Part shown: positions 2,035 through 62,262 of the stretch, one piece after another
How positions within the stretch are numbered: the first letter of the stretch is position 1
Layout: every line of letters starts with the position of its first letter
Origin: Minisyncoccia bacterium
GTDB lineage: Bacteria > Patescibacteriota > Minisyncoccia > Phycocordibacterales > UBA918
Direction of reading: 5' to 3'
DNA length: 64,000 nucleotides
NCBI GenBank assembly: GCA_046598345.1
Contig: JBKJIT010000004.1
Location: forward strand, 201,226-265,225
Notes under the pieces: model-generated
Database searches by the model: none
What the model was told of the DNA's origin: nothing
Seen by the model: the letters and a program-made list of their open reading frames with translations, nothing else
Made by a program: the position numbers and the translations under genes

Positions 2035-2580
2035 CTAGCTGACTGAAGTACGTGTTTTAAGAATGTACATATACAGAATAATTAGAAAGACAAATACGAA
2101 CGCAGACATTAACGGAAACGTTAGGAAATCAAATTCGTAGAAATAGCGTTTTGCGCAGTCTCCTCCAGACGCTGGACATGGAAGGAATGAACTACCGCCC
2201 ACTTGAAGATAGTGTTGGTAGAGTGCAATTATGGTACCCAGTGATGAGAGTACAATTCCATAACGCGCAACTGCCTTGTCTTTGTAATAGATTGCCATTC
2301 CAAGAAGAATGACCTGCGGAAAAAGGAATACCCGTTGCAACCAGCAGAGGCCGCAGGGCACAAACCCAAACACATCAGAATACACAAACCCCATTACTGT
2401 TGAGCCAGTTGTGAGTATGAATGCTGAGAGTAGCCCATAGGTCCGAACAAGGCCTGCGAGCACTTGTTTTCCTTTAAAATCAATAAGGAGCAGAGCAGCT
2501 CCAATACCTACACCAATGCCGAGAATGGCGAGGATAAGGTCTGTTGTCGCAATAATTTCAGCCATACATAGCTTATGCAC
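2035..2580 (-). CDS. disulfide bond formation protein B (DsbB/BdbC family)
   Basis: Four transmembrane segments with two Cys pairs (PCGLCWLQR; CPASGGDC), as in BdbC/DsbB. It overlaps the upstream thioredoxin-fold gene by a few nt, indicating an operon. Confidence 0.7.
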   Translation of the reverse strand: MHKLCMAEIIATTDLILAILGIGVGIGAALLLIDFKGKQVLAGLVRTYGLLSAFILTTGSTVMGFVYSDVFGFVPCGLCWLQRVFLFPQVILLGMAIYYKDKAVARYGIVLSSLGTIIALYQHYLQVGGSSFLPCPASGGDCAKRYFYEFDFLTFPLMSAFVFVFLIILYMYILKTRTSVS

Positions 2581-2986
2581 CGGTCGTTGGTTCAGTCGGA
2601 ACTACACAGTTTGTCTTTTCTGCGAGCGCATCAAACTGCTGTACACCATCAAGCTTGCTACCATCGGCGAAAATCCAGGTAGGATAGCTCTCTACACCGG
2701 CATCAGTACAGACTTGGTTCCTCCCCTGTCCGTTTGGTGTAGAACATTCAACGTATGGCAATTTCGTAGATTTCTTGAAGAGTTCCTTCTGATCTGCACA
2801 GTGCGGGCACCAGAATGCTCCATAGAACTTTGCGCCGGCATCGGCTAGACACTGTGCAAACCCGTCATACACACTCGCAGCTGCGATATTCTCGCGACTG
2901 GCCGTATTACGTACAAAAATAAGTCCTGCAACGAGTACTACTACCAAAATCACATATATATAGGTCATTTTCATAAAAAACAGCAT
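2573..2986 (-). CDS. thioredoxin-fold thiol-disulfide oxidoreductase (DsbA/BdbD-like), membrane-anchored
   Basis: Signal-anchor MKMTYIYVILVVVLVAGL followed by FYGAFWCPHCADQKELF (CPHC active site). The track ORF extends to 3175, but the first ~63 codons run through an intergenic hairpin. Likely starts at 2986, 2974 or 2968. Confidence 0.7.
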   Translation of the reverse strand: MLFFMKMTYIYVILVVVLVAGLIFVRNTASRENIAAASVYDGFAQCLADAGAKFYGAFWCPHCADQKELFKKSTKLPYVECSTPNGQGRNQVCTDAGVESYPTWIFADGSKLDGVQQFDALAEKTNCVVPTEPTTGA

Positions 2987-3005
2987 ATCATTTTTTTTCA
3001 AGTAG

Positions 3006-3036
3006 ATAAAGAAAAAACCCCATGTTGCCATGGGGC
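3006..3036 (-). terminator. hairpin (ccccatg/catgggg) plus U-run read on minus strand; terminator or attenuator just upstream of the dsbA-like start
   Basis: A 7-bp GC stem at 3018-3035 followed on the minus strand by tttttt ctttatc. Confidence 0.45.
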
Positions 3037-3195
3037 CGCTCTGGTTCGTTCGCACATCCGAGCGCAATGTACAAACTTCTGGAAGTCTGGACCGGAACAA
3101 ATTCCGAGATCTAGCTTTTATCACACCGGCCACTCCCGCTTTTGCCTGGCGAGAGGCTACGCAAGGATTATGCAAGAAAGTTTTAATATGTCAAC

Positions 3196-23968: not shown

Positions 23969-24637
23969 TTACTGTAACCCGTCGAATGAGTCAGTCTGGA
24001 TTCTTTCTTCAGGAATTCCCTTTTCTTTAAGTGAAACAACAATAGCATCTACGAATGATGGTGGGCCGGCGACCATAAAGATAGCATTTGGTTTTTGTTC
24101 CTGAAGAATATGTAATGTATCCTCAGTCTCCTCTCGAGTAATGTGAAGCTGTTCAATTGGGAAATAATCCAACTCATTTTTATACAAATAGTTTTCTCTC
24201 GCGATGTGGACTAATGTTGGTTTAAAGCCCAGGCTTCCTGCGGCATGCTCACGGATGATGGATCGAAATGGGGTAATGCCTATTCCACCTGCAATCATAA
24301 TAAGCTCCCCGTCTCTAGGAACTTCGAGATACGTTTTTATCTTGAAGAGCTCAATACTGTCACCTGGTTCCAGTTTTAGGATTTCAGTTTTAAACGGAGA
24401 ACCTGACTCCACCGTCGTCGTGAACATAAGGTGAGGGTCTGAAGGTGCAGCAGCTATGGAGAGGTCTCGCACTGCTTTGTGAGGCGCAGGAACAGAATGA
24501 ATGCGCATATGCACGTAATATCCTGGCCCAAATTCAAAATCAGAGGGTTTGTCGAAGATAAACGTATGAATATGCCCATACTCATGTCGCTTCTCACGAA
24601 GGACTACGTTTGGCCACCTCTTTGTTTCAGGTGGCAT
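23969..24637 (-). CDS. FNR-like FAD/NAD(P)-binding oxidoreductase
   Basis: RxYS-like FAD region and GGIGITPF NAD(P)-binding motif. Confidence 0.7.
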   Translation of the reverse strand: MPPETKRWPNVVLREKRHEYGHIHTFIFDKPSDFEFGPGYYVHMRIHSVPAPHKAVRDLSIAAAPSDPHLMFTTTVESGSPFKTEILKLEPGDSIELFKIKTYLEVPRDGELIMIAGGIGITPFRSIIREHAAGSLGFKPTLVHIARENYLYKNELDYFPIEQLHITREETEDTLHILQEQKPNAIFMVAGPPSFVDAIVVSLKEKGIPEERIQTDSFDGLQ

Positions 24638-24646
24638 ACATAAGTA

Positions 24647-25417
24647 TTAATTTTTTTGGATTTCAAGAATCCTTTTTGGTAAATGAGGATGAGATGCAAG
24701 TGCTTCAGAAAGCCATACAAAAAATCCCTTCTCTGTTTTTGTTTGTTCGATATATGATTCGATATTTACAAGATTGCCCATCGTCTTTCCAGAAACAAGC
24801 TTGACGAGGGCACGTTCACAGGTATTTTGATCAGGAACGAGTGCTTTCATTACTTGGTCAGCTGAATACTCTCGCGCACGCGACAGCGCTGAGTTAAGAA
24901 AAGGAATGAAGGGCACAAGAAACCAATTATAAAAATGAGTATGATTGAGAACATGATGTCCCAGCTCATGTGCAACCACTGCTTTTAGTTGTTCTCTATC
25001 GTTCCCTTCTGTGAGCGCGCTTGCCAGGTCAGAAAAGATTACAAGCATTTTTCTTGAAACTAAGCGGGTTGCGAAGGCGTTGAGTTCTCCACCGGCTTGC
25101 ATTATATGAAGATCGGGCGGTGTTTTAAGTCCAACACGTTCTGAAAGAACTCTCATGGCCTCCCATAACTCTGGAAATTGATTGGGGCCAGCCTTTACGC
25201 TATTGATACGAATCGCGGCCATTGCGAGGAAGTGAAAAAATATATAAAAACAAGTGATTGCAATAAGAATTGCAAGCCAGAAAAGTTCTCCATAATTACC
25301 TTTAAACACTGACCAAACTATCCAGCCGTAAAATAGAGCGCTTATCAGAACACTGCCCATAAAATAAAATTTTTCTTTAGATGTCCTATAGCTTCGGGCA
25401 TTAATATGCTGTTCCAT
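24647..25417 (-). CDS. M48-family zinc metallopeptidase (HtpX-like)
   Basis: HELGHHVLNH zinc motif, N-terminal transmembrane helices, and a later glutamate in REYSADQ. Confidence 0.8.
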   Translation of the reverse strand: MEQHINARSYRTSKEKFYFMGSVLISALFYGWIVWSVFKGNYGELFWLAILIAITCFYIFFHFLAMAAIRINSVKAGPNQFPELWEAMRVLSERVGLKTPPDLHIMQAGGELNAFATRLVSRKMLVIFSDLASALTEGNDREQLKAVVAHELGHHVLNHTHFYNWFLVPFIPFLNSALSRAREYSADQVMKALVPDQNTCERALVKLVSGKTMGNLVNIESYIEQTKTEKGFFVWLSEALASHPHLPKRILEIQKN

Positions 25418-25650: not shown

Positions 25651-26208
25651 TTACGTAACTGAAGTGGGTGCAGAGGGCTGAACTGGAGGTTTTGGAGGGG
25701 GTGTAGGGCGGAATTTATGCAGTATCCAGGCACCAGCAACTACCGTGACTGCATACACTGCAAGAATTGAAACCATAGAGAGCCACATATCTGCAGGGAA
25801 GAATTTGATGCCGTTTGTAAGGAAAAACCCGAGAACGAATGCAACCCACCATCCAATGAATGAGAGTGCGCTTCCCCAGTAGAGGCCAATCTTACGCTTC
25901 GCGAGCATCCATGCATTCACATTGATAAGTACAATAATAATCATCTTCGCCCAAAACACTCCGTCTACGAGCCTAAAGAGTTGATTGTTCATCCAATATT
26001 CAATGATAAAGCCAAGGCCAGAAACAATAGCTATAATAGTTCCCAGACGAGTTATGAAAAAGCTCTTATGCAGAAAGAGCTTATCAGTATCATCCATTTT
26101 TCCATCTTTTAGCGCAGTATTGAGGTTGATCTCAATAAACGTAGCTCCTCCAACGCCTAAAATGGTTCCGATGAGGTGTGCCAGGAGAAGAAATACGTGA
26201 AAGTCCAT
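25651..26208 (-). CDS. hypothetical membrane protein
   Basis: 185 aa, 5 transmembrane helices, Pro-rich C-tail. Confidence 0.45.
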   Translation of the reverse strand: MDFHVFLLLAHLIGTILGVGGATFIEINLNTALKDGKMDDTDKLFLHKSFFITRLGTIIAIVSGLGFIIEYWMNNQLFRLVDGVFWAKMIIIVLINVNAWMLAKRKIGLYWGSALSFIGWWVAFVLGFFLTNGIKFFPADMWLSMVSILAVYAVTVVAGAWILHKFRPTPPPKPPVQPSAPTSVT

Positions 26209-26218
26209 GAAAATAGAA

Positions 26219-26434
26219 TTAAGCTGCTACAGAAGCGGTGTAGCCTAACTTTCCAATTTCTTCGATAATCTGCTCTGCTTTAATTTTTGAATCATCAATC
26301 TCCCATGTACCTTTCTTACCTTCGAGATCAACGAAAACTGACGAAACACCCTCCATTTGTTCCGTTACCATCTGAATACCTGTTGCGCATCCGCCACAGT
26401 GCATTCCGACGATGTTCATATTTAGTGTAGACAT
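26219..26434 (-). CDS. copZ: copper chaperone (HMA domain)
   Basis: 71 aa with GMHCGGC metal-binding motif. Confidence 0.8.
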   Translation of the reverse strand: MSTLNMNIVGMHCGGCATGIQMVTEQMEGVSSVFVDLEGKKGTWEIDDSKIKAEQIIEEIGKLGYTASVAA

Positions 26435-26521
26435 AATTCAAGGTTTAAATTTACGTAATTTCTGTGTTGCTCGATCGACTTTCTGCTGCAAAGTAGATTT
26501 CTACATTTTAGTAGCAAAGCC

Positions 26522-26548
26522 CTTGCGAAAGTATCCCACACTTTCTCA
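26522..26548 (+). repeat. palindromic element cttgcGAAAGTatcccacACTTTCtca, a member of a 4-locus repeat family
   Basis: About 88-115 bp upstream of copZ. Near-identical to 34241-34267. Related modules at 35394-35420 and 44670-44694. Confidence 0.6.
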
Positions 26549-26602
26549 TGCCTAGAACTTCCAGCAAAATTTAAACTTTGAGGAAGCTCTCTATTGATTA
26601 TA

Positions 26603-28984
26603 TCATCCTACTTTCGGCTTTGAAGCAGCCAATGCATCCTTCTCGCCTTTCTTAATCTGCTTCTCAATAGGCGGAACATACGAATGGAGTGTCATTGAAT
26701 TCAATACTACTGACACGGAACTAAACGCCATCGCAAATCCAGCAATTTCAGGGCGAAGTGTTGCTTGTGAAAGGTTAAAGAGCATTTGCCCAAATGAACC
26801 ATAATTAGCCTGCATAGCAACGACCCAACCTGCCGCAATACCGAACGAGGTTTGAGTAATGAGAAGGTGGGCTCCCGCAGCGACAGGAATCGCTGCCACG
26901 TTGTAGAAGAATGCCCAGAAAAGGTTTTGCCAGACCTTAATAATTGTCTTTCGTGAAAGCTGAATAGCTGTCGCAACATCACGAAGATCGTCCTTAACAA
27001 GAATGATTTCTCCCGTTTCAATTGCCACGTCGCTTCCTGAACCAATAGCAATACCCAAGTTTGCTTGTGCGAGCGCTGGTGAATCATTAATACCGTCTCC
27101 AACCATAGCTACGTTCTTGCCCTCCGCTTGAAGCTTCTTTACCATTGCTGCTTTGTCCTGCGGCAATACTTCTGAGAGCACGCGGGTGATACCAACTAGT
27201 TTTGCAATTGCCTGCGCAGTCTTCTCATTGTCACCAGTAATCATAATAACTTCCTTCCCCATGCGCTTAAATTCAGCGATCGCCTCCTTTGCGTATGGTT
27301 TTAGTGCGTCCGCCATTGCAATGAGTGCGACTGGCTTACCATCGATGAGAAGGAAGACTGTGGTTTTTGCCTGCTCTTGAAGTTCTCCGAGCTTAGTCTG
27401 GTAACCTTTTGTATCAATCTTCAAATTATCCATATAGGTAAGGTTTCCAATGATGACTTCCTTTACCTTTCCACTGTGAGGAATCATTGCCTTAATACCC
27501 ATACCCTGCATCGCTTCAAATTTCTTTAGCATAATAACCTCACCAAACGTCTTTCCATGCTCAATAACTGCTCGCGCAAGTGGATGCTCCGAACCCATTT
27601 CAGCAGAGGCTGCAAGGATCGCAGCTTCTTCGCTTTTTACACTCTGGTCAAGCATTACGAAGTCCGTGACAATTGGTTTACCTATTGTGAGGGTTCCGGT
27701 TTTATCGAGTGCAATCGTATTGACCTTGTATGCTTTCTCAAGCGCTTCTCCTCCCTTCAAGATGATGCCAAACTTCGCTGCGCGCCCAATACCGACTACG
27801 AGTGCGGTCGGCGTTGCGAGACCCATGGCGCACGGACATGAGATCACGAGTACCGCAATCATACGTAAAAGTCCCGCACGTACGGGTAGATCAGCAATAA
27901 ATACCCAGCCAATAAAGGTAAGTACTGAAAGCAGAACAACGGCTGGTACAAAGTACTCGCTCACTTTATCGACAAGATCCTGTACAGGAGCACGCTTCGC
28001 CTGCGCCTCCTCCACCATACGGATTATTTGATAGAGCAGTGTATCCTTACCAATTTTTACTGCCTTAAATTTGAAACGACCTTCTAGATTTACGGTCGCA
28101 CCGATCACATTGTCTCCAGCGATACGTTTAACTGGGAATGATTCTCCAGTAACTACTTTTTCATCAATATGTGTTTCCCCTTCAATAAGGACACCGTCAA
28201 CAGGAACTTTTTCTCCTGGCTTTACGATGATTATGTCTCCTTCAACGAGTTCTTCGAGTGGAATGGTGACTTCCTTTCCATCACGTTCAACATGCGCTTC
28301 TTTAGCTTCGAGCTTAAGAAGTTCCTTAATAGCACTAGACGCCCTTCCCTTTGCAACAACTTCTACGTAGCGTCCTAGAAGAATAAAGGCGATAAGCGCA
28401 GCTGAACTTTCCCAAAATGGATGGTCGATATTGAAGAATAAGAAGCCAATCGCACTGTAGAGGTACGCAGCTGTAGTACCCAATACCACGAGCACATCCA
28501 TGTTTGCAGCTCCAATTCTGACTGCAGACCACGCATTGCGATAGAATGGCCATCCGATAACAAACTGAATTGGTGTAGAAAGAACCCAGTAAATATAGTT
28601 GAGATCGATACCGAAAACCTGGTGTACGTGAGGCAGGTTGAACATGTGTACACCCATGTAATAGGCAATGATGGGCGCTGCAATTGCGAACGCTGCGATA
28701 ACGCGACGCTTTGCAAGCAACATTTCCTTTGCCTCAGCCTTCTCTTCGTCTTCAATCGAATTTGACTCCTCATCCGGACGAATCACATCGTATCCGAGCT
28801 TGTTCACAAATGCATCGATCTGGTTAATCGAAATCTTGGATTCATCAAACTCGAGTGCCACTTTCTGAGCACCATAGCTTGTATTCGACGCGACAACGCC
28901 TGCCTGTTTTAAAAGCAGTTTGTCGATCAGAATGGCGCAAGAGGCGCAATGCATTCCTTTTACTTTAAGTACAAGCTTTGTCAT
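26603..28984 (-). CDS. copA: copper-translocating P1B-type ATPase
   Basis: N-terminal HMA (GMHCASCA), the CPC transmembrane motif (ISCPCAMGLATP), DKTGTLT and GDGINDSPAL. Confidence 0.95.
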   Translation of the reverse strand: MTKLVLKVKGMHCASCAILIDKLLLKQAGVVASNTSYGAQKVALEFDESKISINQIDAFVNKLGYDVIRPDEESNSIEDEEKAEAKEMLLAKRRVIAAFAIAAPIIAYYMGVHMFNLPHVHQVFGIDLNYIYWVLSTPIQFVIGWPFYRNAWSAVRIGAANMDVLVVLGTTAAYLYSAIGFLFFNIDHPFWESSAALIAFILLGRYVEVVAKGRASSAIKELLKLEAKEAHVERDGKEVTIPLEELVEGDIIIVKPGEKVPVDGVLIEGETHIDEKVVTGESFPVKRIAGDNVIGATVNLEGRFKFKAVKIGKDTLLYQIIRMVEEAQAKRAPVQDLVDKVSEYFVPAVVLLSVLTFIGWVFIADLPVRAGLLRMIAVLVISCPCAMGLATPTALVVGIGRAAKFGIILKGGEALEKAYKVNTIALDKTGTLTIGKPIVTDFVMLDQSVKSEEAAILAASAEMGSEHPLARAVIEHGKTFGEVIMLKKFEAMQGMGIKAMIPHSGKVKEVIIGNLTYMDNLKIDTKGYQTKLGELQEQAKTTVFLLIDGKPVALIAMADALKPYAKEAIAEFKRMGKEVIMITGDNEKTAQAIAKLVGITRVLSEVLPQDKAAMVKKLQAEGKNVAMVGDGINDSPALAQANLGIAIGSGSDVAIETGEIILVKDDLRDVATAIQLSRKTIIKVWQNLFWAFFYNVAAIPVAAGAHLLITQTSFGIAAGWVVAMQANYGSFGQMLFNLSQATLRPEIAGFAMAFSSVSVVLNSMTLHSYVPPIEKQIKKGEKDALAASKPKVG

Positions 28985-29004
28985 GACGAATAATTACTAA
29001 TTGA

Positions 29005-29481
29005 TTAATTTACGAGGTTTGAAAGTGCATTCACAACAAATTTTCCAAGATGCTCAAAATGCCCACGAAAAATTCCCGTGTAAGGGCCCTCTTGAACAAC
29101 TCCTCCTGGGAGATTTCCTGTCGCTTTACTGTCACTGCAGGAGACTGAACAGTAGAATGGGAATTCACCCTCCTTTGAGGCTACAAAATCAACCTCAATG
29201 CGTCCGCTCGCCGGAAGTCTTTGAGAAATACCGAGTGCATCGATTGCAAACCCGTGGTCGAATGTGTCCTCATTAATTACGGTAATGTGCACACGATCAC
29301 ATTTGTTTACAGTGATGCTTTCTGGGTCGAATCTCCACTCAAGTTTCTTTGAAACCACAGTCACATCGCGTGCAATACCCATGTTAGCTGAGCAATCATC
29401 GGTATCAGTAGTGCGACTAAAGATAAACCCGCCTCCAAGAAGTACGACGAGCACGATCCCCATAATTACAAATTTGTTCAT
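29005..29481 (-). CDS. cupredoxin-like domain protein, membrane-anchored (non-canonical ligand set)
   Basis: Start MNKFVIMGIVLVVLL is adjacent to the stop of the upstream giant ORF. ...HITVINEDTFDHGFAI...GEFPFYCSVSCSD resembles the Cupredoxin_1 fold, but the His after the Cys is missing. Confidence 0.45.
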   Translation of the reverse strand: MNKFVIMGIVLVVLLGGGFIFSRTTDTDDCSANMGIARDVTVVSKKLEWRFDPESITVNKCDRVHITVINEDTFDHGFAIDALGISQRLPASGRIEVDFVASKEGEFPFYCSVSCSDSKATGNLPGGVVQEGPYTGIFRGHFEHLGKFVVNALSNLVN

Positions 29482-29482
29482 G

Positions 29483-32400
29483 TTATTTAATTTCAGCTTT
29501 AAGATACTTTTTAACGACGAGGACGAGTGGCACCGTGAGTAGTAGGGAGATGATAAGGAGAATCCACCACTTCTTGTTTGGTGACCATCCAAAATTGTCT
29601 ACACTAAATGATGGTGTGCCAACCTCAATATCGAAGGTTGCAATGCGTGGTGCACTCTCCCCCTTAAGGACAAACGAGACGAAAGCGCGATACTGTCCTT
29701 CAGTCGGAAACTGAGTGGGTACTGAATAGGTTCGTCCACCTGCGGCGACCTCATGCCCATCTGCTATGCCCCCGTGTGCATATGCTACCGGAATACTAAA
29801 TAATGAAGGGGGCAACATTGAGTGTAAGTGTGGCATCGATTCATTAAATCCGGGAGCACCTGGTACGTTCTGGTCTCCAGCGGGAACCGTAGTCGGCTCT
29901 GGAAATGTAGTGTTGCCTGGGTAGGTCACGAAACGTACAGAACCGTCACTTCTCACAAAGGTAATGGTAATCGGTCGGGGAATTACATCGTCGAGCACCA
30001 TTGCTGCACCTTGAGAATCTGAAAATGTAAGTGCTAATAGCGTGTTCTTTCCTACTTCCACAAACCTAGTGTCAGCACTGACTGTGTATTCTCTATCACT
30101 TACTTGATCAGTATAGGAATATGCAAGTGGTTCAACACTTCCTGGGGTAACTGGTCCACCGGACGTTGCACCAGCTGGTGGAGGTGTTGATCCTGAAGCG
30201 GTTGGCTTCACAGTCGCGCGAAATTCATCCCCAATTGCATTTCCATTCTGATCTTCAACACGGAAAGAGAACATCATGCCTGCATGGAGGTGCTCCGAAA
30301 TGTGACAATGTGCCATCCATACACCAGGATTACTCATCTCAACTAGAACATCGATGTACTCACTTGGTGGCACAAGCGCTGTGTCCTTCCACACCATGTT
30401 GTCATTCGGCACGCCATTATTTGAGAGAACTACAAACCGTTGCCCATGAAAGTGGATTGGATGCTGCATGACGTGCGCGGCCATCATGTCATTCGTAAAT
30501 CTGATCTTTACGAGTGAACCTTGTTTAAAGGTCCAGTCATTGATACCCATATTGATCTTTCCGGTTGTCTGATCAATGATATTCCACGCCACATTTTCAG
30601 TCGTGTTAACTTTGTCAGTATTTTGTGCATCATCCCATTGCATTGCCTCAATACCACTTTGCATCATTGGCATTGCAGTTCCAGCGCCATGCCCATGTGG
30701 CATTGATTCATCCACTGATGTGGCCGAAGCAGCTCCTCCGTGTGCGTGTGCGTTGTGATCTACAGCACCGGTAAGTGTGACTGTGAGCAGTGCGCGCTTT
30801 TCAGGTTCTTGTGCCAAATACGCCTGTCTATACTGATCGAAAAGTGCTTTCTCTTCAATATTACGCCTGGCCACATTGAAGTTTTCAACATACGATGGTA
30901 ATGCCTCTTCTTCCTGTGCATCAAATTGAGCTACCACAATTTGGCGATCTGGAAGCATGTTCAGGAGTTTGTAGAGACCCTCCTCCGGGAAATACACTTC
31001 GACAACCAGTCGTTCTGCTGGCGAAAGAAGTACACTTTCCTCATACACTTCTTGTTCAAGTCTTCCCCATTCAGCTCCTACTACTTTTATTTGCGCCCCA
31101 GGGATAGCGAGCTTATAGGTACGTGCATTAGAAACATTGGTAAGGAAGAATCGAACTACCTCTCCCGCCTTTACATCGAGAAGTGCATCGGACTCTCCAT
31201 TAACGAGGTACATATTTCCAAAGCGACCAAGTAGTGCGTGATCAACCGTGTCTTTGTAGAAGTCAGCAATTTGATTGTTCTCAATGAGCACATCGTCAAT
31301 CATGATTGGCACTTCACGGTTCACCTCCGACCAATAGTCAGGGTTGTTCGATGCAACAATATAGCTTCCGTAGAGACCCATTTCTTGGCCATAATCATCT
31401 CTCGTGTGTGGGTGATACCAGGCAACACCAGCGTCGGGGAATGAGAGCGTATAGGTGAATGATTCCCCAGGTTTTACGACGTTTTGGGAAAGATCAGGAG
31501 TACCATCCATGAGATTGTTTAGGCGGAGACCGTGTGAGTGGATGGTTTGATCAACATCAGTATTGTTCTTGAAATTAACAGTAATCACAGAACCTTCAGT
31601 TGTTTTAATGAAAGGCCCAGGGACTGAACCATTGTACGCAAGCATGCGAACCATTTTGTTACCAATCTCCTTCTTTACGTACCCTGCTGTGATGTTATAC
31701 GTATCTCCATTTGCAAGCTCCACAAAGAGCGGGCCAGTAGCTTCTGGAAGACCTGTAATGTCTTTTGTAAATGTAGGGCGCTCTAGTACTGGTGCTTGCG
31801 TAGTGGGTGTCGCGACGTGATGTGTTGTTGCTGCGGGATCAAACTGTTTAAGATAGAAGTTTCGTGGAAGGAAATAAATGAAGAGAATTGCCAAGAATAC
31901 AGAAATCGCAATAAGATAATTGCGCTGAATGCCCAGTATTTTTTCTTCGTATCCGCGAGCAACTGGATCTTTGTAGACACCCGTCTCGCCATATGCAACC
32001 TTAGCTTCTTCGGCTCTTCGAGTTGCTTCAAGTGCATCAATTTCTTCACGGGCATGCTTAAGGTCATAGGTTACCTCGAGCTCATCGACATTCATCATGG
32101 TTTCGACTTGACGTCGATCCCTTTCGAGACGATCTATTTGCGCTTCAAGTGCTGCAACCTTGTACGCAGGACTATTATGCATCTCTCGTCGTCGACGTGC
32201 GTACCACCACCAAATCGGAAGTAGCCACACAAACACGAGGAACCAACTTCCGAGTTCAAGTGGAAGCCCGAAAAGACCAGTACCTGCTTCAATTCCATGT
32301 AGATGAGCAACATTTGTGCCAAGCGTATCGTTCATTATGGCGTTCACCTTCCCTTCCTGCGTCACTGATTCAAGCGCACTATGAATGCCTGAGTTCACCC

Positions 32401-33232
32401 ACCACTTATGTGAGAAAAGTCCAAGCGTAAGAATAAACCCAGAAACGAACACCATAGCCCAACCCGTTGCACGTTCGAGCTTGTCCTTACGAGCCATGAG
32501 CCAGTTAAGACCGTTTACTCCAAGAATTGCGAGGAATGCAAGAAGAAGAAGTGGTAGCACACGTCCTACGGCGTGAATGAGGAACATCGTCCATCCATAA
32601 AGTACATCTCCACTCGAAGCTATTTCAATCAAAATAAGCGGCGTTGCTGGATGCGGGCAGCCAACCCCTACATTTCCTAAAAATGCGCCAAGAAAGAACG
32701 CCTTGAGAATTTCCTGTCTTTTTTGAATAAATGCCGGCGCCGCACCTGAATAGGTCGGCATATGAAAATTCATGAGTCCTATTTCCGAGAGCGCAAAAAG
32801 AAGCGCAAACGTACCGGCACCAAAATAAATCCAGTTCTTAATAGCTTCCAGATCAGCCCCAAGTGAACTTACTGCAATTCCACCGAGAAGAGCTGCTGCA
32901 ATACCATAGAGACTGAGTGTAAAAGCAACTCCAAAACCGAATGCGAGTGCCATACTAAGGCCCTTTATCATTCCCTTTCCCATAGAGAGCGGAACAATAA
33001 CGAACGCAAGCGGCAGTGTGCATGGCATTACGATCATTGTTAGACCTGTTGCAAATGAAAATAAATACCAGCCGATACTGCCATCTGGTACTGACGGAGC
33101 AATTACAAAAAGATAGAGAAGCCCGAAAATAATGGCTGCTGCCACAAAGAGTGTGCCACTGATGAGCCAACCCCGAAGCCCTGACATTCCGCCCGGGGAC
33201 GCTAGAGATGAGGATGGGGTTTCTGTTGTCAT
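29483..33232 (-). CDS. fusion protein: CcdA/DsbD-type thiol-disulfide transporter TM domain + three-domain multicopper oxidase (CueO-like, Met/His-rich insert) + C-terminal domain and TM anchor
   Basis: N-terminal ~300 aa is a polytopic TM domain with CcdA-like paired Cys motifs (MPCTLPLAFV; GVGCPHPATP). The MCO copper motifs are HSHGLRL, WYHPH, HPIHFHGQRF and HCHISEHLHAGM. The Met/His-rich run is DHNAHAHGG..MPHGHGAGTAMPMM. It ends with a terminal hydrophobic helix. Single uninterrupted 1249-codon ORF. Confidence 0.85.
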   Translation of the reverse strand: MTTETPSSSLASPGGMSGLRGWLISGTLFVAAAIIFGLLYLFVIAPSVPDGSIGWYLFSFATGLTMIVMPCTLPLAFVIVPLSMGKGMIKGLSMALAFGFGVAFTLSLYGIAAALLGGIAVSSLGADLEAIKNWIYFGAGTFALLFALSEIGLMNFHMPTYSGAAPAFIQKRQEILKAFFLGAFLGNVGVGCPHPATPLILIEIASSGDVLYGWTMFLIHAVGRVLPLLLLAFLAILGVNGLNWLMARKDKLERATGWAMVFVSGFILTLGLFSHKWWVNSGIHSALESVTQEGKVNAIMNDTLGTNVAHLHGIEAGTGLFGLPLELGSWFLVFVWLLPIWWWYARRRREMHNSPAYKVAALEAQIDRLERDRRQVETMMNVDELEVTYDLKHAREEIDALEATRRAEEAKVAYGETGVYKDPVARGYEEKILGIQRNYLIAISVFLAILFIYFLPRNFYLKQFDPAATTHHVATPTTQAPVLERPTFTKDITGLPEATGPLFVELANGDTYNITAGYVKKEIGNKMVRMLAYNGSVPGPFIKTTEGSVITVNFKNNTDVDQTIHSHGLRLNNLMDGTPDLSQNVVKPGESFTYTLSFPDAGVAWYHPHTRDDYGQEMGLYGSYIVASNNPDYWSEVNREVPIMIDDVLIENNQIADFYKDTVDHALLGRFGNMYLVNGESDALLDVKAGEVVRFFLTNVSNARTYKLAIPGAQIKVVGAEWGRLEQEVYEESVLLSPAERLVVEVYFPEEGLYKLLNMLPDRQIVVAQFDAQEEEALPSYVENFNVARRNIEEKALFDQYRQAYLAQEPEKRALLTVTLTGAVDHNAHAHGGAASATSVDESMPHGHGAGTAMPMMQSGIEAMQWDDAQNTDKVNTTENVAWNIIDQTTGKINMGINDWTFKQGSLVKIRFTNDMMAAHVMQHPIHFHGQRFVVLSNNGVPNDNMVWKDTALVPPSEYIDVLVEMSNPGVWMAHCHISEHLHAGMMFSFRVEDQNGNAIGDEFRATVKPTASGSTPPPAGATSGGPVTPGSVEPLAYSYTDQVSDREYTVSADTRFVEVGKNTLLALTFSDSQGAAMVLDDVIPRPITITFVRSDGSVRFVTYPGNTTFPEPTTVPAGDQNVPGAPGFNESMPHLHSMLPPSLFSIPVAYAHGGIADGHEVAAGGRTYSVPTQFPTEGQYRAFVSFVLKGESAPRIATFDIEVGTPSFSVDNFGWSPNKKWWILLIISLLLTVPLVLVVKKYLKAEIK

Positions 33233-33236
33233 ACGC

Positions 33237-33497
33237 TTATGAAAGTTCCTTTAACTTATTTATAAAATCTTTTTCGTTCACCCCTCCGGTTGAGAAAAGC
33301 TCGCCATTTATGATAATTCCTGGAGAGGCAAATATTTGATGCTTTTGTACAAGTTCTTGTCCTGCAGGATCCATAAGGCTTACCTCTGAGAATTTTACAT
33401 TCGGCCAATCCGCTTTTATCGTCTCCCAAAACGCTTTAAAAGCCGCGCAGTGTGTGCATCCCGGTGATGATAGTTCCTCAAGTAAAATTTCTCGCAT
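33237..33497 (-). CDS. small cytoplasmic thioredoxin-fold protein (CxxC = CTHC), the usual CcdA partner type
   Basis: 86 aa with SPGCTHCAAF and no signal peptide. Ends 4 nt before the CcdA-MCO start. Confidence 0.7.
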   Translation of the reverse strand: MREILLEELSSPGCTHCAAFKAFWETIKADWPNVKFSEVSLMDPAGQELVQKHQIFASPGIIINGELFSTGGVNEKDFINKLKELS

Positions 33498-33580: not shown

Positions 33581-34153
33581 CTAGCAAGAAATTTCTTGAT
33601 ATCTAAAACAATCTTTGATGTGATCGTTTACCATTCCTACAGCTTGCATGTGCGCGTACCAAACTGTCGGTCCCAAGAACTTAAAACCTCGCTTTTTAAG
33701 ATCTTTAGACATTGCTATAGCCAGATCGGTGATCACAGGAATGTTCTTCCCCGTCTTTCTTTTTCCATCAATTGGTTTATCTGCAACCCAATTCCACATG
33801 TACGTACTAAAACTTCCAAACTCTTTCTGAACCTTAAGAAATGCCTGAGCATTTGTAATCGTCGAAGTAATTTTAAGACGATTTCTAATTACAGATGCCT
33901 CATTACAGAGCCTCTCAGCGTCTTGTCCAGTCATTTTTGCTACTTTCTTTGGCTCAAAATTTTTGAATGCTTTCCTATACCCTTCTCGCTTATTTAAAAT
34001 GATTCTCCAGGAAAGCCCTGCTTGGGCACTTTCGAGCACTATAAATTCAAAGAGTTTTTGATCGTCGTATATTGGTACTCCCCATTCTTCATCATGGTAC
34101 TTAACATAGAGATCGTCACCTCCTTCTGTCCATTTGCATCTTTTCATATGCAA
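33581..34153 (-). CDS. tag: DNA-3-methyladenine glycosylase I
   Basis: MKRCKWTEGGDDLYVKYHDEEWGVP...LESAQAGLSW is a Tag hallmark. Confidence 0.9.
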   Translation of the reverse strand: MHMKRCKWTEGGDDLYVKYHDEEWGVPIYDDQKLFEFIVLESAQAGLSWRIILNKREGYRKAFKNFEPKKVAKMTGQDAERLCNEASVIRNRLKITSTITNAQAFLKVQKEFGSFSTYMWNWVADKPIDGKRKTGKNIPVITDLAIAMSKDLKKRGFKFLGPTVWYAHMQAVGMVNDHIKDCFRYQEISC

Positions 34154-34335
34154 AGAGTACCAATTAACTGGTCCGTCTTACAGACGCTGTACACCCTGTC
34201 GATATTTCTTTTCGTCTCCTCAAGGAGTATCTGACAGGGTCTTGCGAAAGTCTCCCAGACTTTCTCACCCCATTCAGTATCGTGATAACGAATATACAGC
34301 TCATCTCCGTTTTTTACCCAGTCGCACCGTCTCAT
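34144..34335 (-). pseudogene. truncated, degenerate second copy of the tag N-terminus
   Basis: MRRCDWVKNGDELYIRYHDTEWGE parallels the Tag N-terminus. It then degenerates, with an apparent ~10-aa deletion, and stops after 63 aa. The repeat element 34241-34267 lies inside it. Confidence 0.45.
34241..34267 (+). repeat. second copy of the palindromic element cttgcGAAAGTctcccagACTTTCtca
   Basis: 25 of 27 identical to 26522-26548. It lies 88-114 bp upstream of the tag start. Confidence 0.6.
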
Positions 34336-44599: not shown

Positions 44600-44636
44600 A
44601 TGTAGACCGGTTCACATCCTACAGATGCTGTATACC

Positions 44637-44694
44637 TTTCGCACTCCGCCAGCTAGCGGATGCTCTAGGTCTTGCGAAGCTCTGCTTCTCACCC
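44637..44694 (+). repeat. composite repeat (module 1 at 44637-44669 plus module 2 at 44670-44694), same family as 35394-35460, 26522-26548, 34241-34267
   Basis: See the paired alignment given for 35394-35460. Module 2 tcttgcgaagctctgcttctcaccc resembles ggtcttgcgaaagtctcccagactttctcaccc at 34238-34270. Confidence 0.55.
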
Positions 44695-44720
44695 GGCAGC
44701 CCGACAAACACAAAGGAAAT

Positions 44721-61674: not shown

Positions 61675-62262
61675 TCACCTGGTGAGCAATTCGTCAATCT
61701 CCGCCTTCAATTCATCATAGTGTAGTGAACCACGCTCATGGAATCTGAGAGAACCCAAGTCGTCATACACAATTGTTTCCGGCATCGCATAGCCCTCTAT
61801 AGTCTTAAAAAACATGTCCGCCTCGTCTACGGCATACACAATCCCCTCTCCGCGACCGATATAATCGAGATATGCATTCGCTGTTTCCTTAGTCTCCATG
61901 CGATTCATTGCAATCACGCTAATTTCTTTACCAAAATCAGATTTAATTCGTTCGAGCACATCAAAGTCATTTTTTGACAGCGGACTCCAAGAAGCCCAGG
62001 AGTTAATAATTACAGGTTTCCCTTCATACGATTTGAGATCAAAAGAATTACCCTCCAAATCGGAGTACACAGGAGTCTCTTCATTTTGAATCGCACGAAG
62101 GTCAGAATGCTGACGTGCATAAAATCCTCGTGGTGAAGTTAATTCATACGCAATAAACGCCACGACGATAAGCACGCTAATGAGTACTCCACTCGTAATG
62201 ACCGTACTTTTAGAAAGCTTTTGAATCACACTATATTCTACATCACGAGAGGCAGAGACCAA
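61675..62262 (-). CDS. TlpA/ResA-like thioredoxin-fold protein with CxxC replaced by SxxS (WASWSPLS), membrane-anchored
   Basis: N-terminal TM, then KPVIINSWASWSPLSKNDFDVLERIKSDFGKEISVIAMN, aligned to the TlpA consensus ..WATWCPPC.. Both Cys are replaced by Ser. Confidence 0.6.
   Translation of the reverse strand: MVSASRDVEYSVIQKLSKSTVITSGVLISVLIVVAFIAYELTSPRGFYARQHSDLRAIQNEETPVYSDLEGNSFDLKSYEGKPVIINSWASWSPLSKNDFDVLERIKSDFGKEISVIAMNRMETKETANAYLDYIGRGEGIVYAVDEADMFFKTIEGYAMPETIVYDDLGSLRFHERGSLHYDELKAEIDELLTR

Follow-up and report, generated by a model that had tools for sequence, protein, structure and literature searches.

Why should a bacterium place a membrane conduit for reducing power in the midst of genes for copper export? 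The question arises from a gene cassette of a Minisyncoccia bacterium (Patescibacteriota), which lies on a 64-kb stretch of contig JBKJIT010000004.1; this whole stretch is termed the window hereafter, and coordinates are numbered from its first letter. By analysis of open reading frames (ORFs) and domain searches, six closely spaced copper-handling genes were identified between 33497 and 25651, all of them on the minus strand. They encode a thioredoxin (Trx)-like protein, a CcdA-like module fused to a multicopper oxidase (MCO), a membrane-anchored cupredoxin, the ATPase CopA, the chaperone CopZ and a further membrane protein. With moderate confidence we interpret the cassette as a copper-handling unit in which efflux is accompanied by a reductant line, running from the Trx-like protein through the CcdA module to the Cys pair of a cupredoxin of the putative CuA type. 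The cassette is conserved across Patescibacteria (Parcubacteria/Paceibacteria), which are very small, uncultured bacteria. Its genes are, in the order of transcription:

33237..33497, minus strand: Trx-like protein, 86 amino acids (aa), PF13192
29483..33232, minus strand: CcdA-MCO fusion protein, 1249 aa, PF02683 and three Cu-oxidase domains
29005..29481, minus strand: membrane-anchored cupredoxin, putatively of the CuA type, 158 aa, PF13473 (Cupredoxin_1)
26603..28984, minus strand: CopA, Cu(I)-exporting ATPase of the P1B-1 type, 793 aa, above the cut-off of TIGR01511
26219..26434, minus strand: CopZ-type HMA copper chaperone, 71 aa, PF00403, motif MHCGGC
25651..26208, minus strand: sixth gene, polytopic membrane protein, distantly DUF2214-like, 185 aa

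The spacers between the first five genes amount to 4, 1, 20 and 168 nucleotides (nt) in this order, and another 10 nt separate copZ from the sixth gene. Base composition across the region is unremarkable. A first-pass annotation of the window had described a compact unit of five genes with spacers of 2-20 nt, except for 168 bp before copZ. The close packing on one strand and the 168-nt gap were confirmed, but the shorter spacers of that series actually range from 1 to 20 nt and the unit comprises six genes.

Conservation of the gene order

A scan with one genome per species returned 80 Patescibacterial loci containing the CcdA module, whose neighbors were determined by tblastn with the window proteins. 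Forty-two of them, referred to as well-flanked, extend at least 1.5 kb upstream and at least 9 kb downstream. All features were counted on the strand of the CcdA module:

Trx gene upstream of the CcdA module: 67/80 loci, 38/42 well-flanked loci
Cupredoxin gene downstream of the CcdA module: 68/80 loci, 40/42 well-flanked loci
CopA gene downstream of the CcdA module: 65/80 loci, 39/42 well-flanked loci
CopZ gene after the CopA gene: 55/80 loci, 36/42 well-flanked loci
Trx, cupredoxin, CopA and CopZ all with the CcdA module: 35/42 well-flanked loci
MCO domain: 19/80 loci, 9/42 well-flanked loci
Ig-like His-rich domain: 28/80 loci, 18/42 well-flanked loci
Sixth (DUF2214-like) gene: 9/80 loci, 7/42 well-flanked loci

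The same order recurs in most of the 80 loci, a clustering far beyond chance. A check for dispersal of the homologs in related genomes bore out the linkage, as 35 of the 42 well-flanked loci keep all five genes on one strand. The conserved core thus consists of Trx, CcdA module, cupredoxin, CopA and CopZ, and the oxidase is one of several interchangeable ectodomains carried by the CcdA module. The fusion ORF had been recognized correctly in the first-pass annotation, but it does not belong to the core as such, since the module bears different ectodomains by lineage. In 35 of 68 loci the cupredoxin gene overlaps the preceding ectodomain-encoding ORF or begins no more than 20 nt from it, and copA follows within 60 nt after the cupredoxin gene in 34 of 63 loci. 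Two relatives whose fusion proteins are 68-69% identical to that of the window (L082 and L083) contain the six genes in the window order; the contig of a third (L084, fusion 71% identical) ends after copA. Fifty loci encode a membrane protein of about 135 aa without Pfam family (e.g., L041 9559-9966), 41 of them between Trx and CcdA. It is absent from the window and probably represents a further cassette component which the window organism lacks.

The CcdA-MCO fusion protein

The product of the second gene is composed of four parts:

32198..33232, minus strand: CcdA-like membrane module (aa 1-345) with an extra N-terminal transmembrane (TM) segment, the CcdA core, an outward loop with four His and a further TM segment
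31733..32197, minus strand: charged linker (aa ~346-437) and TM8 (aa 438-456)
30233..31732, minus strand: three-domain MCO ectodomain (aa ~501-1000)
29483..30232, minus strand: C-terminal extension (aa 1001-1249) with a Pro/Gly-rich spacer, an Ig-like sandwich and a C-terminal TM anchor

Residues 58-234 of the N-terminal module matched PF02683 (DsbD_TM) with 37.1 bits, the gathering score being 27.1. An alignment of 25 sequences disclosed that C71 (PCTLP) and C192 (GCPHP) are invariant. The core therefore possesses the two membrane cysteines of a CcdA protein, one in TM1 and one in TM4, both flanked by Pro. In the outward loop H275, H284, H310 and H312 were likewise invariant in the alignment. 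Hydropathy and the counts of Lys and Arg fit an extra TM segment with the N-terminus inside, after which both ends of the core would lie outside. When compared by sequence with solved structures, the module gave no match at E<=1. TM7 ends in RRRRE on the inside, and three to four Lys/Arg residues flank each end of TM8 according to sequence and hydropathy. The linker, whose coiled-coil character was read from the sequence, is probably a charged cytoplasmic helix, and TM8 would return the chain to the outside.

The ectodomain comprises Cu-oxidase_3 (PF07732), Cu-oxidase (PF00394) and Cu-oxidase_2 (PF07731) within residues 525-995. All four copper sites are represented by invariant motifs (H565xH567, H607xH609, H924xxH927xH929 and H975-C976-H977...H981...M986), and a His/Met-rich insert is located at aa 826-860. 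The best NCBIfam match was CueO (NF008205); at 162 bits against a cut-off of 525 it lies below equivalog level. Internal to a polytopic protein and tethered by TM8 and the C-terminal TM segment, the domain does not belong to the soluble Tat-exported type. For the C-terminal extension no Pfam family was found. AlphaFold2 predicted a seven-strand Ig-like sandwich for residues ~1020-1215 (mean predicted local distance difference test score, pLDDT, 79.8), which exhibits a disordered His-rich loop (MPHLH...AYAHGG...DGH). Its function could not be deduced from the fold, because Foldseek yielded only generic Ig-like and CARDB matches. Many CcdA-module proteins have a homologous Ig-like domain as their only ectodomain.

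More than 90 clusters of the fusion family (45-71% identity) were found in Patescibacteria, with sources including Paceibacteria, Parcubacteria and Kaiserbacteria, whose annotations name domains only. The N-terminal module (55-69% identical) also occurs alone (~350 aa) or fused in proteins of ~500, ~700-800 and ~1020 aa, and all ectodomains fused to it are rich in His and Met. The window fusion contains a total of three cysteines, namely C71, C192 and the type 1 copper ligand C976. It follows that the electron acceptor of the CcdA module must be another protein.

The cupredoxin and its Cys pair

The start codon of the cupredoxin gene is ATG 29481, which is shared by most of the listed homologs (158 aa); in the ORF listing the frame begins at the upstream TTG 29592. 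A profile of 39 homologs matched nitrosocyanin (8e-12) and the CuA domain of NosZ (1e-8), with the HG and YCSxxC segments in register. The NosZ residues aligned to the cysteines of YCSxxC are C618 and C622, which we take to be CuA ligands. The AlphaFold2 model (pLDDT 80) displays the Greek-key cupredoxin fold, and Foldseek assigned it with probability 1.0 to cupredoxin_1 from B. anthracis (4HCF/4HCI), nitrosocyanin, CuA domains and FtrB. CupA was also among the fold matches (4F2E, E 3e-4). An identity with CupA was rejected, since the profile reached it only with E 0.6 and the ligand set is H/C/C/H/H; CupA uses Cys/Cys/Met/Met for its Cu(I) cluster. Only fold and gene position are alike.

In 190 non-identical homologs H76, C111, C115 and H141 were invariant. 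The motif C111-x3-C115 reads CSVSC (nt 29137-29151). Position 144 is occupied by His (123 homologs, and the window protein), Met (41) or Gln (26). The loop between C115 and H141 varies from 3 to 26 residues and measures 25 in the window protein; homologs with the shortest loop show C-x3-C-x3-H-x2-[M/Q], the canonical CuA pattern. The window protein thus presents H76-x34-C111-x3-C115, the 25-residue loop and H141-x2-H144, as compared to His...Cys-x3-Cys-x3-His-x2-Met in CuA. These patterns suggest a cupredoxin of the CuA type with H76, C111, C115, H141 and H144 as putative copper ligands, and copper would be its metal. The earlier designation as a cupredoxin-like membrane protein holds for both the cupredoxin and the membrane anchor, but is to be refined to a CuA-type protein with an invariant CxxxC.

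Several traits of the relatives point to a location outside the cytoplasm. C30 and C61 co-vary perfectly, both being present in 123 and both missing in 67 of the 190 homologs with no case of one alone, as expected of a disulfide. The wider family counts 4786 members at E<=1e-3, the best 150 representatives of which were inspected. Of these 150, CxxxC was present in 133 and an N-terminal hydrophobic segment in 123, and a lipobox was found in 31 of the 133 with CxxxC. Close homologs possess a charged tail of about 40 aa ahead of the TM segment, indicating an orientation with the N-terminus inside and the C-terminus outside. Taken together, the covariation, the lipoboxes and the charged tails argue that the cupredoxin is probably extracytoplasmic.

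Proposed electron donor, copper export and the redox state of the envelope

The Trx-like protein matched PF13192 (E 2.9e-8) and, weakly, MJ0307/MTH895-type proteins. It harbors CTHC at residues 14-17 (nt 33447-33458) and possesses neither a TM segment nor a signal, and the CxxC was retained in 72 of 72 homologs from related loci. It therefore fits a cytoplasmic electron donor to the CcdA module, as had been supposed in the first-pass annotation, where it was also noted to end 4 nt before the fusion gene.

The designation of the next two genes as a CPx-type Cu+ ATPase and an HMA chaperone was substantiated. CopA scored 562.5 bits with TIGR01511 (cut-off 397) and matched PF00122, PF00702 and PF00403, with one N-terminal HMA domain. 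Its motifs are CASC13-16, TGES279, CPC383-385, DKTGT427, SEHPL465, GDGIND629, YN694 and MAFSS752. The subfamily model, the CPC/YN/MxxSS motifs of the transmembrane metal site and the CxxC of the HMA domain identify it as a P1B-1 Cu(I)-ATPase. CopZ consists of a single HMA domain (PF00403, E 1.9e-12), in which the MxCxxC motif appears as MHCGGC; CopZ-specific NCBIfam models remained below cut-off (50 vs 95).

The window also encodes a DsbB homologue (CGLC) beside a membrane-anchored thioredoxin-like protein with FWCPHC (2035-2580 and 2573-3175, both minus strand). Encoded side by side in a small genome, the two are predicted to generate disulfides together outside the cytoplasm, so that the envelope would be oxidizing. 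No extracytoplasmic Trx-fold partner for CcdA was found in the cassette, and none among the representative clusters of recurrent neighboring ORFs that were scanned. A membrane-anchored, TlpA/ResA-like Redoxin/AhpC-TSA protein (61675-62262, minus strand) was considered as the missing partner. It was rejected because it is free of cysteines, the active-site CxxC being replaced (WASWSPLS).

Proposed mechanism and alternatives

In the mechanism that we propose, CopZ would hand Cu(I) to CopA inside the cell and CopA would pump it out. Outside, the MCO ectodomain would oxidize Cu(I) to Cu(II) in the manner of CueO, and the cupredoxin would bind copper via H76, C111, C115, H141 and H144, perhaps assisted by the His-rich Ig-like domain, all three being tethered to the membrane. 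To bind copper, C111 and C115 would have to stay reduced in an envelope that contains a DsbB-type oxidizing system and Cu(II). A Cys-x3-Cys copper site under such conditions needs a reductant, which would be the reason why the cassette carries a reductant line of its own. The cytoplasmic CTHC protein would reduce C71/C192 of the CcdA module, from where electrons would pass outward to the CxxxC of the cupredoxin, whose Cys pair we regard as the best candidate acceptor.

Parts of this scheme have precedents in the literature. In apo-subunit II, the cysteines of the CuA site are maintained in reduced form by TlpA, and CcdA conveys electrons from TrxA to the outer face (PMC9145763). In ScsB, electrons leaving the membrane domain are first accepted by the alpha domain, which has an Ig-like fold and contains a redox-active CX3C (PMC10907172). 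The maturation of a multicopper oxidase depends on CopA (PMC8456105). The last step from CcdA to the cupredoxin may be direct, which would be most economical because no Trx-fold partner was found and the sole redoxin of the window contains no cysteines. We tentatively put forward that CcdA delivers cytoplasmic reducing power straight to the Cys-x3-Cys of a stand-alone CuA-type cupredoxin, without a Trx-fold intermediate, and that the whole operates as a self-contained extracytoplasmic copper redox machine. In variants with an oxidase, electrons could even reach the oxidase and O2.

The same genes could also serve a general repair of envelope thiols under copper stress. Similar to the Scs system, Trx and CcdA would then reduce many proteins mis-oxidized by Cu(II), the cupredoxin would be a copper sink or chaperone instead of a specific CcdA client, and CopA, CopZ and the oxidase would provide classical efflux and oxidation. 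That DsbD/ScsB conduits serve copper tolerance is firmly documented (PMC10907172), CcdA goes together with CopA and CopZ in the cassette, and the DsbB-type pathway of the window would create just this kind of damage. However, no case is known in which CcdA serves a variety of substrates in the absence of a Trx-like isomerase, and no extracytoplasmic protein of this kind was found in the cassette or in the representative clusters of recurrent neighbors that were scanned. Furthermore, the CxxxC cupredoxin is the most tightly coupled neighbor of the module (35 of 68 loci). We consider this explanation unlikely, albeit not negligible.

Alternatively, the genes could make up an oxidase system or one for the assembly of cuproproteins rather than for detoxification. 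CopA and CopZ would load the oxidase and the cupredoxin, CcdA and Trx would prepare the CuA cysteines in a TlpA-like fashion, and the loaded cupredoxin would act as an electron-transfer partner, e.g., by feeding an O2-reducing oxidase. With its ligands arranged as H-x34-C-x3-C-...-H-x2-[H/M/Q], the cupredoxin resembles CuA centers that transfer electrons, TlpA-type reduction precedes CuA metallation (PMC9145763), MCO maturation depends on CopA-type export (PMC8456105), and all four copper sites of the oxidase are intact. On the other hand, the oxidase domain is missing from 61 of the 80 loci, so that the cupredoxin cannot generally be its partner, and a source of electrons for the cupredoxin is not apparent. 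The loop between C115 and H141, long and variable (3-26 residues), is unlike rigid electron-transfer CuA sites. Neither a haem-copper oxidase nor a NosZ gene was noticed in the cassette or among the conserved neighbors, a search aimed at them not having been made. Such a function is quite improbable.

It is highly improbable that the CcdA-like module is a copper-binding or copper-conducting membrane domain (via C71, C192, H194 and the four-His loop) served by the CTHC protein as a copper chaperone: the atypical GCPHP with its invariant His beside the Cys, the invariant four-His extracytoplasmic loop, the His/Met-rich nature of every fused ectodomain and the lack of a solved CcdA/DsbD match at E<=1 would agree with it, but the DsbD_TM match lies above threshold with both canonical Cys positions, CopA and CopZ already make up a complete Cu(I) export route, and a transport of metals by CcdA proteins is, to our knowledge, without precedent.

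Some observations weigh against the mechanism proposed above. CcdA normally reduces thioredoxin-like partners and not cupredoxins, and no such partner was found here. The second motif of CcdA usually has the form xPCxxP, from which GCPHP departs, so a non-canonical role of the module is possible. The charges around the TM segment of the window cupredoxin itself are ambiguous. A reductant line beside an oxidase looks paradoxical; moreover, with 61 of 80 loci lacking the oxidase, oxidation cannot be the core function. The gap between copA and copZ holds a repeat, and a promoter-like match lies at 26624-26597; copA may not share its transcript with copZ and the sixth gene. Finally, gene content, linkage, catalytic motifs, the fold of the cupredoxin and its probable location outside emerge from the sequence data, the gene-level facts and the synteny being solid; from these we infer each transfer step, the route taken by copper, the metal that the cupredoxin binds and the co-transcription of the genes.

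Comparison with known systems

The cassette belongs to none of the named systems with which it was compared, and full-text literature searches for such a set of genes in Patescibacteria yielded nothing. With the Scs systems of Salmonella, Proteus and Caulobacter (ScsB/ScsC/ScsD) it shares a conduit of the DsbD family, which in the cassette putatively serves copper tolerance and receives its electrons from a thioredoxin-like protein of the cytoplasm; in ScsB a beta-sandwich with CX3C accepts the electrons first, and Scs components bind copper (PMC10907172). In contrast to ScsB, the conduit of the cassette has a core of the CcdA type and lacks the alpha and gamma redox domains, the CX3C resides in a separate cupredoxin of the presumed CuA type, and the conduit is fused to the oxidase and/or the His-rich Ig-like ectodomain and genetically linked to copA and copZ. 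A ScsC/ScsD-like partner was not found in the cassette. The parallel to Scs drawn in the first-pass annotation consequently holds for the logic, but not for the extracytoplasmic Trx-like partner, which was found neither in the cassette nor in the representative clusters of recurrent neighbors that were scanned.

In the TlpA-ScoI-CoxB system of Bradyrhizobium, reductant crosses the membrane, as is proposed for the cassette, and the CuA Cys-x3-Cys is reduced before copper insertion (PMC9145763, PMC6669012). Homologues of TlpA, Sco and PCuAC were not found among the cassette genes, and the cupredoxin stands alone as an anchored protein of 158 aa instead of being subunit II of an oxidase or NosZ. 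In addition, its loop from Cys to His is expanded and in the window organism Met is replaced by His. The cop/cue units (CopA-CopZ with CueO/CutO) resemble the cassette by a P1B-1 ATPase with CPC/YN/MxxSS, an HMA chaperone and a CueO-like oxidase with a His/Met insert, and in these units oxidase maturation is linked to CopA (PMC8456105). They differ in that the oxidase of the cassette is fused to CcdA and tethered at both ends instead of being soluble and Tat-exported, that no CueR/CsoR/CopY regulator was found, and that the cassette contains additional genes for Trx, cupredoxin and the DUF2214-like protein. Pneumococcal copY-cupA-copA likewise places a small, N-terminally anchored protein with cupredoxin fold directly upstream of copA (PMC5646241). 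CupA has been described as cytoplasmic, whereas the cupredoxin of the cassette appears to be extracytoplasmic, and the cassette also includes CopZ. By analogy, the cassette may work like a merger of cop/cue efflux, a reductant pathway of the Scs/DsbD type and a TlpA-type preparation of the CuA site.

The gap between copA and copZ and a dispersed repeat

As stated in the first-pass annotation, a regulator gene is not apparent: no Pfam domain of CsoR, CopY, CueR or ArsR was found in 20 small ORFs across the window, and among the recurrent neighboring-ORF clusters of the 80 loci none was evident, except for a response regulator in seven loci. Internal promoters or terminators that would split the unit were sought by consensus scans against shuffled sequences, which gave no information, as the sites occurred at chance level (21 promoter-like sites with 21.2 expected, 12 terminator-like sites with 10.2 expected).

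It had been proposed that regulation may rest on a palindromic element upstream of copZ. The palindromes do exist, but belong to a dispersed repeat. Two copies of a 26-nt core, GAGAAAGTNTGGGANACTTTCGCAAG, were located in the window, one inside the gap (26522-26547) and the other upstream of tag (34241-34266), with 0 occurrences expected by chance. The complete repeat spans about 90-110 nt and forms three hairpins, for which compensatory changes were seen in 12 of 22 predicted pairs. With a covariance model (R1) four copies were detected in the window:

34170-34272, minus strand: repeat copy, 93.6 bits
26443-26553, minus strand: diverged full-length copy of the three-hairpin repeat in the copA-copZ gap, which it occupies for the most part, 41.1 bits, E 1.6e-9, model positions 1-93
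44611-44696, minus strand: repeat copy, 39.6 bits
35393-35485, plus strand: repeat copy, 23.7 bits

The palindrome AAATTACGTAAATTT just before copZ is the third hairpin of the gap copy. A copper operator in the 168-nt gap was rejected; the gap had no Rfam match and its palindromes are hairpins A and C of the repeat. The predicted RNA fold of the gap is not unusual (z = -1.6). In relatives copA and copZ are separated by only 7 nt (L002), 9 nt (L082) or 27 nt (L083), the spacing ranging from -26 to 2142 nt over 56 loci. Because a copy of a dispersed repeat lies in the gap, the gap is short in relatives and the repeat stands beside unrelated genes elsewhere, the 168-nt gap is, as judged from these sequence comparisons, an insertion of an element similar to repetitive extragenic palindromes (REP), bacterial interspersed mosaic elements (BIME) or miniature inverted-repeat transposable elements (MITE), and not a copper operator.

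The repeat possesses a nearly invariant core of 23 nt, GAGAAAGUNUGGGANACUUUCGC, to which at least 120 metagenome contigs match. On these contigs (including L085-L204) several copies per genome are present in both orientations, sometimes as alternating arrays. Related cop loci contain the repeat as well: L084 (1-407) has four copies of alternating orientation within about 400 nt, and L042 (6217-6310) harbors one in the copA-copZ spacer on the opposite strand. Diverse genes lie downstream of the metagenome copies, 51 ORFs falling into 40 clusters, and some copies directly follow a sequence resembling the 5'-half of a tRNA (L142, L169, L096). No family of Rfam 15 was matched. The repeat is possibly an element of the REP/BIME or MITE kind, or else an unknown Patescibacterial RNA; as a widespread structured repeat absent from Rfam, it is a separate lead.

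Directly upstream of the copy at 34170-34272, codons 1-23 of tag are present a second time in diverged form at 34267-34335 on the minus strand (MRRCDWVKNGDELYIRYHDTEWG vs MKRCKWTEGGDDLYVKYHDEEWG). The ORF containing this duplicate (34144-34335) reads through the repeat, and its end overlaps the start of the genuine tag gene in the sequence ATGA. The duplicate may be a scar of repeat insertion or recombination. Next to another repeat copy and tRNA-Pro, 18 kb from the cassette, the window contains a homologue of pterin-4a-carbinolamine dehydratase (PF01329; 44721-45020, minus strand). Homologues of this gene recur near the cassette in five loci; the representative in L023 (13346-13684) stands between copA and copZ.

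The sixth gene and neighboring genes

The product of the sixth gene has no Pfam match of its own, but 10 of 35 homologs matched PF09980 (DUF2214; best E 5.6e-6). It contains an invariant His in TM1. Its homologs form 98 clusters, few of which bear source names, all Patescibacterial. The gene follows copZ in L082 and L083, the two close relatives with sufficiently long contigs. Between it and the ATP synthase operon the window contains two genes spaced by 9 nt, one for a peptidase of family M48 (HtpX-like) and one for an NAD-binding oxidoreductase similar to FNR (23969-25417, minus strand); unlike in the window, the ATP synthase operon follows directly after the cassette in L082 and L083. At the other end lies:

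33581..34153, minus strand: DNA-3-methyladenine glycosylase I (Tag), PF03352, E 4.9e-78

The tag gene has the orientation of the cassette and precedes the Trx gene by 83 nt. It is possibly co-transcribed with the cassette, but is probably not functionally part of it. It was seen upstream of the Trx gene in L002, L005, L082 and L083 (in L083 with two more genes in between) and in none of the other 76 loci.

Significance of the cassette

The cassette joins modules that are otherwise separate, i.e., P1B efflux, a reductant conduit of the DsbD family and a cupredoxin apparently of the CuA type. The combination of CcdA with a copper ectodomain in one polypeptide is a natural 'Rosetta stone' fusion pointing to the purpose of the conduit. 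A direct step from CcdA to the cupredoxin would, if true, widen the known range of CcdA clients and provide a minimal system for studying the reduction and metallation of CuA-type sites. Patescibacteria are not known to respire. If electrons flow from Trx via CcdA and the cupredoxin to the oxidase and O2, the variants with an oxidase would possess a thiol-driven oxidase that detoxifies oxygen and copper. Patescibacteria have very small genomes, and many of them devote about 8 kb to the cassette. This implies that copper and the thiol chemistry of the envelope are a major constraint on their surface-attached lifestyle.

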